A DNA stretch of 64,000 bases from an uncultured Alphaproteobacteria bacterium (GCA_934273635.1 CAKQSV010000008.1:30-64029), one strand, 5' to 3'. Counted from the stretch's first letter, positions 25,371-26,440 are shown. The notes: generated by a model not told the origin, from the sequence alone. Translations and numbers: made by a program.

Positions 25371-25399
25371 TTGAGAAAATGATAAAAATATTCTACACT
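25371..25399 (+). promoter_or_regulatory. Sigma70-like promoter (TTGAGA, 17 nt spacer, TACACT) for the pilin-like operon
   Basis: Spacing and hexamers. Confidence 0.4.
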
Positions 25400-25428
25400 G
25401 AGAGCTAATGGCGGAAGGAGGCAGAATT

Positions 25429-26016
25429 GTGAGTGAAGAACGCGGTTCATCTATGGTGGAAATGATTGGAGTTATTGGTGTTTTGGGGGTTTTGGCCGCC
25501 AGTGTTTGGACGCTGATTAATTCGGCGCGCGCCCGTTTTCGGCTCAGTCAGGGGGTTTTGCAGCTGCAAAGTTTGGAAAAAGGCGTGTCGAGGTTTTATG
25601 CCAGTGCCGGAAATTATGACGGTTTGAAGAACAGCAACGCCATCAAAGAATTGATTGACAATCGTATTCCCCCCACAGGTATGGCAACCTCGGAAAACAA
25701 GTTGCGGCACGCTTTTGGTGGCGAGGTGGAAATTGCAAATGTGCCTTACGCTAATGAGGAGGAATACGGCAGTTCGAGCGACAGTTTTACGATAACCTTT
25801 AAGGGACTTGACAAAAGTCAGTGCCGAGAGATGGCGAGTATTGTGTGGATGCAGAGCGACGCGGTTAGTTTGGTGAGTATTAAAGTCGGCGACACCAAAT
25901 ATGTGTGGCCTAATTATGCCGGCAACGGCGACAGCAAGGTTTTGCCTGTGGACGCGGGGGAGGCGATGACTGCCTGTGCCGATGCGCCGAAAGACATAAC
26001 ATGGGAGTTCAGATAA
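25429..26016 (+). CDS. Type IV pilin-like / pseudopilin-like protein with a non-canonical prepilin leader
   Basis: GTG start with GGAAGGAGG RBS 7 nt upstream. Leader MSEERG then SSMVEMIGVIGVLGVLAA (Gly at -1, Glu at +5, hydrophobic helix). Two C-terminal Cys (SQCREM...TACADA) typical of a pilin disulfide loop. Confidence 0.55.
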   Translation: MSEERGSSMVEMIGVIGVLGVLAASVWTLINSARARFRLSQGVLQLQSLEKGVSRFYASAGNYDGLKNSNAIKELIDNRIPPTGMATSENKLRHAFGGEVEIANVPYANEEEYGSSSDSFTITFKGLDKSQCREMASIVWMQSDAVSLVSIKVGDTKYVWPNYAGNGDSKVLPVDAGEAMTACADAPKDITWEFR

Positions 26017-26017
26017 G

Positions 26018-26440
26018 ATGATTCAGGTCAGCGATGTCGGCAAACTTAAAGAGACTTCATCTTCAAAAGTGAAGAAAACTTCCTCCGGAGGTGATTTTTC
26101 GACCTATCTGCGAGATGCTATGCAGGTGTCTGATGACAACGCGGTGTCGGGTACCGCGCAGATTGCAACAGCCAACGCGATTTTTGCGGCGCAAGAAGTA
26201 GACGCCGATGAAGAAAGGGAACGTCGCAAAAAACAGCTTGGCCGCGGGAGGTCTTTGCTTGAAAAGTTGGAGGAAATTCGCAACGGTTTACTGCGCGGAT
26301 ATATCTCTAAAGACACGCTGATTGAAATTTCTCGGTTTGTGAAAGAGAAAAAATTTGAGGCTGAGGACGAGACTTTGAACGAGATTATTAATGAAATTGA
26401 ACTGAGGGTCGAGGTTGAACTGGCAAAGTTGATGAAATAA
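26018..26440 (+). CDS. Small charged protein (140 aa), translationally coupled to the pilin-like gene; possible FlgM-like C-terminal motif
   Basis: TAAG-ATG overlap with the upstream gene. C-terminal ...EEIRNGLLRGYISKDTLIEISRFV resembles the anti-sigma-28 FlgM motif (IRNGxYxVD..IA), but the similarity is weak. Confidence 0.4.
   Translation: MIQVSDVGKLKETSSSKVKKTSSGGDFSTYLRDAMQVSDDNAVSGTAQIATANAIFAAQEVDADEERERRKKQLGRGRSLLEKLEEIRNGLLRGYISKDTLIEISRFVKEKKFEAEDETLNEIINEIELRVEVELAKLMK

Follow-up and report, generated by a model that had tools for sequence, protein, structure and literature searches.

The type IVb major pilins BfpA of enteropathogenic Escherichia coli (EPEC), TcpA of Vibrio cholerae, CofA of enterotoxigenic E. 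coli (ETEC) and PilS of Salmonella Typhi and R64, together with the flagellar class II checkpoint FliX-FlbD, known from polarly flagellated Alphaproteobacteria such as Caulobacter crescentus, are the described systems closest to a pair of genes in a 64-kb stretch of DNA from an uncultured Alphaproteobacteria bacterium. This stretch is called the window here, and the region examined comprises its positions 25371-26440. The region holds two closely spaced genes on the + strand, behind a candidate sigma-70-like promoter: the first encodes a pilin of the type IVb class and the second, fliX, a protein that its sequence assigns to FliX.

The window pilin has its Pfam families and predicted fold in common with BfpA, TcpA, CofA and PilS. 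Like other type IVb major pilins, it presents a mature length of about 190 residues, Gly at -1, Glu at +5, a residue other than Phe at +1 and a C-terminal Cys pair. It differs from them in its leader of 6 residues, since the leaders of type IVb pilins typically have 13-30, and in its gene, which is coupled to fliX rather than placed in a pilus operon. The R64 thin-pilus/Tcp-like clusters of gut Alphaproteobacteria encode a major pilin whose N-terminal segment is similar to that of the window pilin, but the latter belongs to a separate orthologous group, lies far from any such cluster and is much less polymorphic.

Pilins have precedents as signals in the feedback of PilA on PilS/PilR in Pseudomonas and in the PilA-PleC signalling of Caulobacter. 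In addition, non-flagellated Lysobacter reuses flagellar type III components for the control of twitching (PMC7277350). For the locus described here these are conceptual precedents, by analogy only.

In the literature consulted (PMC3096577), the role given to FliX is solely that of regulating flagellar assembly in polarly flagellated Alphaproteobacteria, and its mode of sensing assembly is still open. In Caulobacter it binds the sigma-54 activator FlbD and switches FlbD by the state of early flagellar assembly; its conserved central and C-terminal regions are needed for this binding (PMC3096577). The second gene of the pair encodes a full-length member of the FliX family, with the conserved central and C-terminal regions and the ancestral fliX-dksA synteny. 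However, the annotated outgroup fliX faces a divergent flgI operon, whereas the window fliX is the second gene behind a pilin; its product scores below the NCBIfam equivalog cut-offs, and the sequence available revealed neither FlbD nor flagellar genes. The anti-sigma-28 factor FlgM is, like FliX, small, charged, partly disordered and tied to flagellar assembly, but it has no sequence or fold match to the window FliX, and the target of FliX is a sigma-54 activator instead of sigma-28 (PMC3096577).

Pilin gene and its product

The prepilin gene (25429-26016, + strand) encodes a precursor of 195 amino acids (aa) and has a GTG start. The open reading frame (ORF) called mechanically covers 25408-26016, but a start at ATG 25408 would add 7 residues that have no counterpart in homologues. 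The GTG at 25429 is the likely start codon, because a Shine-Dalgarno sequence, AAGGAGG (25415-25421, + strand), can be read 7 nt 5′ of it and because the homologues, all 26 that were aligned, start at M-x-E-E-R-G. The ORF has 28 close homologues, and 2538 representatives of its family were retrieved at E<=0.001 by an exhaustive profile search; it is therefore more than a chance reading frame.

The precursor begins with the leader M-S-E-E-R-G (25429-25446, + strand), delimited by the alignment of homologues, after whose Gly a prepilin peptidase is predicted to cut. The sequence continues with SSMVEMIGVIGVLGVLAASVW, which places Gly at -1, Ser at +1 and Glu at +5, followed by about 20 hydrophobic residues. 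The predicted mature pilin has 189 residues; according to the alignment and the structural model, its first 25 (25447-25521, + strand), SSMVEMIGVIGVLGVLAASVWTLIN, comprise the invariant Glu5 and the hydrophobic alpha1-N segment. Ten of these 25 residues are identical to those of the major pilin encoded by a type IVb pilus (T4bP) cluster, L016, which is described below. Among the 26 homologues Glu +5 is invariant, and Gly -1 occurs in at least 90% of them. All members of the orthologous group have leaders of 6-10 residues, and so have most family representatives among the 150 that were listed.

Two Cys residues, C132 and C183 of the precursor (codons 25822-25824 and 25975-25977), occupy columns invariant in the 26 sequences, and the region between them (25822-25977, + strand) is presumed from the alignment to be a disulfide-bonded D-region. 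The C-terminus is also conserved and ends in DITWEFR. Every complete orthologue retains Gly-1, Glu+5 and at least two Cys. The limits of the product, its short charged leader, Glu +5, the hydrophobic stretch and the Cys pair had all been read correctly in the original prediction, which was made from the sequence alone. It had also pointed to Ser at +1 as a departure from the canonical Phe or Met; the Ser is present, but it is not anomalous for a type IVb pilin, as the family has S, A, R, T, G or Y at this position.

Classification of the pilin

The pilin matched the Pfam families Bundlin, with 38.3 bits (cut-off 22.3), and PilS, with 33.3 bits (cut-off 22). A profile of the family compared with the sequences of the PDB retrieved TcpA (3e-10), BfpA (1e-4) and CofA (9e-4), and in tblastn searches the pilin was 26% identical to bfpA on EPEC plasmids over 98% of its length. 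In the AlphaFold2 model (predicted local distance difference test score, pLDDT, 79; predicted template modelling score, pTM, 0.73), a 50-residue N-terminal helix (residues 7-56) is followed by a beta-sheet. The model thus has the pilin fold, a long N-terminal helix on an antiparallel beta-sheet. The top 15 PDB matches of this model in Foldseek were all type IVb pilins (TcpA, CofA and Salmonella PilS), with probability 1.0 and template modelling (TM) scores of 0.5-0.66.

By its Pfam scores, PDB sequence profile and predicted fold, the product is a genuine prepilin with a class III signal, of the type IVb (Bundlin/PilS/TcpA) class. The type IV pilin-like character that had been proposed is thereby sharpened to type IVb, and the fold prediction, which might have indicated something other than a pilin, favours a pilin. 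The gene is an orphan in its neighbourhood, as had been noted: it lies outside any type IVb biogenesis operon, flanked by a pair of genes for an outer-membrane protein (OMP) and a lipoprotein on one side and by fliX-dksA on the other.

Other kinds of subunit were considered and rejected. The GspG pseudopilin model of the type II secretion system (T2SS), TIGR01710, matched only the N-terminal 60 residues and scored 13.8 bits where 88.85 are required. Families of the TadE, Flp and ComG kinds were not matched in Pfam or NCBIfam, which speaks against a Tad/Flp-type subunit or a competence pilin. The T2SS pseudopilin and competence options of the original prediction were consequently set aside.

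FliX gene and its product

The second gene (26018-26440, + strand) encodes the 140-aa charged protein that had been expected after the pilin, and Pfam identifies it as FliX, a class II flagellar assembly regulator. The score for Pfam FliX (PF10768) was 111.4 bits (cut-off 25), with residues 3-138 aligned on positions 2-134 of the 135 of the profile. The NCBIfam FliX equivalogs were also matched, but below their cut-offs (best 111.2 against 153 bits), and the protein is placed in a divergent branch of FliX. It aligns from end to end with the FliX proteins of flgI-adjacent loci, including the central region and the C-terminal motif EIELRVEVELAK; these conserved regions match those described for Caulobacter (PMC3096577). 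From the colinear sequence and shared synteny, the gene is classed as a fliX orthologue. The protein is strongly constrained, with a mean column identity of 70%. A tblastn search of FliX against plasmids gave no matches.

The original prediction had compared this protein with FlgM, on the basis of the segment EEIRNGLLRGYISKDTLIEI, which it placed at the C-terminus. The segment is in fact central (residues 85-104 of 140). The idea of a flagellar regulator stands, but the family was wrong: no Pfam FlgM match was found at E<=1, and FlgM had no support from PDB sequence or fold matches. The structural model of FliX is of low confidence (pLDDT 67, pTM 0.41), half disordered and with three C-terminal helices; no PDB sequence matched the protein, and this low-confidence model gave no fold match at E<1.

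Gene spacing and expression signals

The stop codon of the pilin gene (TAA, 26014-26016) is separated from the ATG of fliX (26018) by 1 nt, so that the two genes, which had been supposed to overlap, are nearly contiguous but do not. A scan for promoter consensus sequences found a sigma-70-like candidate (TTGAGA, a 17-nt spacer and TACACT; 25371-25399, + strand), which is predicted to serve a pilin-fliX transcript. No terminator-like site was found between the two genes in a sequence scan. A scan for the sigma-54 promoter consensus found none in the window, including the region 5′ of the pair, and no CtrA-type TTAA-N7-TTAA box was recognized by eye upstream of it. The two genes probably form an operon with a single transcript and translational coupling, since the spacer between them measures -4 to +15 nt across the intact loci described in the next section.

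The block with the promoter candidate is also present in the orthologous intergenic regions of loci L005-L009. In the region between the OMP and pilin genes (25288-25428, and its counterpart in these loci), a block of about 60 nt, which includes AAAATCTAAAATGTGAAGTAAAAAAT, is nearly identical between species, despite pilins that are only 45-54% identical. This block could contain two divergent promoters or a shared regulatory site.

Conservation of the pilin-fliX pair

Exact-protein look-ups in human-gut and rumen contigs revealed the lipoprotein and OMP genes on one strand and pilin-fliX-dksA-maf-rng-yacG on the other, an arrangement that holds down to 45% pilin identity. The window, L005-L007, L010 and L012 all have the pilin gene directly 5′ of fliX and in the same orientation; the more distant lineages among them, L010 and L012, keep the pairing with 181-aa and 192-aa versions of the pilin. 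For a count of this linkage, a metagenome scan with the FliX alignment collected 80 loci, in which the pilin was then searched upstream with a local hidden Markov model (HMM). Where FliX was at least 49% identical to that of the window, the pilin was directly upstream in 20 of the 20 loci with upstream sequence; where FliX was at most 47% identical, it was there in none of 57. Six further gut or rumen lineages, beyond those scanned, carry the pilin 5′ of fliX.

The spacer of -4 to +15 nt is found in all intact loci, the exception being one frameshifted contig, and it is maintained while the identity of the pilins drops to about 28% across the clade. The pair also stays together where the flanking genes change (L010, L012, L031 and L037); in L037, dksA is no longer downstream of fliX, and the lipoprotein/OMP and pilin-fliX pairs are retained. 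On the other hand, annotated outgroup loci present flgI and a rod-binding gene (flgJ′) divergent from fliX-dksA. In the nearest outgroup, L039 (GC content 0.31), flgI is divergent from fliX-dksA-maf-rng, the downstream order of the gut clade without the pilin. These comparisons of gene order indicate that the pilin-fliX pair is a character of the clade and not accidental.

Among the members of the clade are very common human gut species that bear the labels 'Proteobacteria bacterium CAG:495' and 'Azospirillum sp.'. One FliX variant, P0110, is indexed in 1591 blocks of the assembly collection, and therefore its organism is common. A scan of GTDB genomes returned no more than two loci, each with the label 'Alphaproteobacteria bacterium'.

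Type IVb pilus clusters in related genomes

Two loci, L016 and L017, carry a cluster with genes for a TcpQ-like protein, a secretin, PilO, a 498-aa protein, a T2SSE ATPase, a T2SSF platform protein, a 199-aa bundlin-like protein, a 205-aa pilin and a PilT-like ATPase. The cluster is classed as an R64/Tcp-like type IVb system, and the gut Alphaproteobacteria with clusters of this type include 'Azospirillum sp. 47_25' and 'Ca. Scatocola faecipullorum'. The 205-aa major pilin has its own strong terminator. The window pilin has paralogues in both the 205-aa and the 199-aa protein (26-27% identity, E 1e-13 to 1e-19), and the fliX-linked pilins form an orthologous group separate from the cluster pilins. 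The largest branch of the pilin family, to which the 205-aa pilin belongs, has the N-terminus GRSMVEMLGVLAIIGVLSVGGIAGYSKAM and the NCBI name 'type 4 pilus major pilin [Alphaproteobacteria bacterium]'. The 199-aa protein, encoded just 5′ of the major pilin (L016, 9278-9877), presents an ordinary transmembrane anchor and lacks the G|xxxxE prepilin motif, yet it has the terminal W-x-F motif of the family.

The cluster pilin and the fliX-linked pilin differ in variability. Between two strains, 17 of the 205 residues of the major pilin (L016/L017, 10001-10618) are different, against 0-3 residues in the flanking proteins. This pilin is a polymorphism hot spot, with 81 variants listed, and is carried by many assemblies of about 21 kb. 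The fliX-linked pilin, on the other hand, differs in 0-8 of 181 residues within one species, and its nucleotide divergence is like that of fliX. A first within-species comparison was biased, as its loci had been retrieved by exact protein match, and the comparison was repeated without that bias. The low variability points to a subunit outside the exposed bulk of the filament.

Two observations bear on whether such a cluster and the pilin-fliX pair occur together. The tetranucleotide usage of L016 resembles that of L010 and L033 (r = 0.92-0.94), and a T4bP PilO and secretin (MFR1032005 and MFR1032007) precede an L033-type pilin, FliX and DksA (MFR1032801-803) by about 795 accession numbers.

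Possible roles of the pair

We propose, with even confidence, that the fliX-linked pilin is a conserved accessory or alternative pilin that uses machinery encoded elsewhere and is co-produced with FliX, tying the pilus to the programmes that FliX controls. The pilin gene would have been fixed directly 5′ of fliX in the ancestor of the gut and rumen clade, at the place where flagellar outgroups have the divergent flgI operon. Once inserted into the inner membrane, the prepilin would be cleaved behind Gly6 by a prepilin peptidase from another locus, and a type IVb machinery would then use the pilin as an accessory or alternative subunit of low variability. Translational coupling would keep the supply of pilin proportional to that of FliX, and the production of the pilus subunit would thereby be tied to FliX-dependent gene control. 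The original prediction had suggested a pilin serving machinery elsewhere or a pilin-regulator pair; we judge this suggestion right, with FliX as the partner.

Several points weigh against this proposal. Searches of the window with Pfam, and of the window and 409 kb of related fliX loci by tblastn with T4bP and flagellar seeds, revealed no prepilin peptidase, pilus machinery or flagellar gene; the neighbourhood is, as had been remarked, free of type IV pilus, T2SS and secretin genes. The presence of a T4bP cluster and the pilin-fliX pair in the same genome is only suggested, by the tetranucleotide similarity and the accession proximity given above, and the contig lists of the major pilin P0389 and of FliX P0110 share no contig. 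The 6-residue leader is short for a type IVb pilin, without the length of the long leaders of the class, and the fliX-linked pilin is much smaller than most of the type IVb minor pilins known. In Pfam, the N_methyl family (PF07963) was matched with 13.0 bits, below the gathering score of 21.2; its model is tuned to Phe+1 pilins, and some of the pilin homologues carry it weakly. The argument for co-transcription draws on two features, the spacing and the lack of a terminator-like site between the genes, and genes that keep their order need not share a function.

A second explanation, which we regard as rather doubtful, is that of a sensor and its regulator, in which the membrane pool of pilin or prepilin is the signal that sets the activity of FliX on an FlbD-like sigma-54 activator. 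The clade-wide spacing that suggests translational coupling, the replacement of flgI, the usual neighbour of fliX, at this locus, and the strong constraint on FliX are consistent with it, as is the presence of rpoN in the window (52461-53936). The low variability of the pilin would suit a role that is not exposed, and the switching of FlbD by FliX according to assembly state, together with the reuse of flagellar components in Lysobacter, provides precedents (PMC3096577; PMC7277350). A direct contact is, however, hard to picture, since FliX is predicted to be cytoplasmic and the only cytoplasmic part of the prepilin is the leader. In addition, the available sequence showed no FlbD-like gene, and the sigma-54 promoter consensus was found neither upstream of the L016 major pilin nor anywhere in the window.

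The same explanation can be extended to FliX as a checkpoint of type IVb pilus assembly, instead of or besides that of the flagellum, up to the extreme version in which flagella are lost and FliX is kept. Such an exaptation would turn a flagellar checkpoint into one for the pilus, with FliX toggled on an FlbD-like activator by the fliX-linked pilin or by the unassembled pool of it in the membrane, and flagella may have been lost; we hold this to be unlikely.

It is likewise improbable, in our opinion, that there is no functional link at all, and that a stand-alone pilin gene landed beside fliX in the ancestor of the clade, the order being inherited and the products acting in unrelated pathways. 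The downstream genes dksA-maf-rng-yacG would be a parallel, as housekeeping genes that are also syntenic without an obvious shared function; the promoter candidate is sigma-70-like, not flagellar or CtrA-type, and machinery of neither kind is nearby. Yet the pair persists in the four loci, L010, L012, L031 and L037, whose genes have changed on both sides of it, and neutral inheritance rarely preserves a spacer as narrow as that observed at a pilin identity of about 28%.

A T2SS pseudopilin, competence pilin or Tad/Flp-type subunit encoded with a FlgM-type anti-sigma factor is very improbable: the weak GspG match and the generic class III signal would agree with it, but the GspG score is far below its cut-off, TadE, Flp and ComG are not matched, no fold match falls outside the type IVb pilins, and the small protein belongs to FliX, with no match to FlgM in Pfam (E<=1), PDB sequences or folds.

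Neighbouring genes and other features of the window

Upstream of the pilin gene and divergent from it is a gene for a small outer-membrane beta-barrel protein of 183 aa (24736-25287, - strand; Pfam OMP_b-brl, 70 bits), found at the same position in every gut-clade locus with enough flank. It is followed, in an operon-like position, by a gene for a Cys-rich lipoprotein of 174 aa (24151-24675, - strand) with the lipobox LSAC; this protein has no Pfam family, and its orthologues in L031, L033 and L037 are 38-44% identical. The two genes (24151-25287) are divergent from pilin-fliX in every gut-clade locus, even where all other neighbours are different, and because of this retention they may belong to the same module as the pair. 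Downstream of fliX lies its ancestral neighbour dksA (26532-26957, + strand; Pfam DksA_N and zf-dskA_traR), and the fliX-dksA pairing is also present in the flagellar outgroup loci.

Two proteins without a Pfam family are encoded farther upstream. One (16817-18901, + strand) has 694 aa and is very acidic, with Pro/Glu repeats and a local GC content of 0.55; its length varies between strains and species, with 654-694 aa in L001-L004, 586 in L006 and 811 in L005. The other (19170-20204, + strand) has 344 aa in tandem repeats of about 22 residues (LTSLEGAPREVGGxFxCxxNxL), and the strains L001-L004, of one species, have either a full-length gene for it (342 aa), a shortened one (237 or 63 aa) or none. 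On the other side of the pair, a 211-aa protein (47766-48401, + strand) with a weak match to a receiver domain (20 bits, below cut-off) is encoded near a PAS histidine kinase (49374-50927, - strand); it is neither FlbD-like nor sigma-54-dependent. The GC skew is positive in 62 of the 64 one-kb bins of the window, with typical values of 0.05-0.29, and the + strand carries most of the genes, so that the whole window lies on the leading strand of one replichore. Finally, L031 (12963-19893) and L033 (14080-19653), both from CAG:495-like lineages, carry a VirD4/TraG-like coupling protein of a type IV secretion system (T4SS) and several unannotated membrane proteins just 3′ of rng.

Significance

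The clade-wide pilin-fliX operon, in the place of the flgI neighbour, is a new arrangement of known parts and appears undescribed. Literature searches returned nothing relevant on a connection of FliX with pilin, or on flagella or pili in RF32, CAG-239, 'Azospirillum sp. CAG' or Scatocola. The conserved, coupled arrangement suggests that type IV pilus subunits are linked with a sigma-54 checkpoint system, and the pairing hints at a joint wiring of pilus and flagellar control in this clade, which is prevalent in the gut. If the link is one of co-expression only, the locus would be a modest addition to the diversity of pilins. If it is true that the pilin informs FliX, the pair would offer a handle on the long-sought input of FliX, and it would have a bearing on the choice between adhesion and motility in uncultured gut Alphaproteobacteria.

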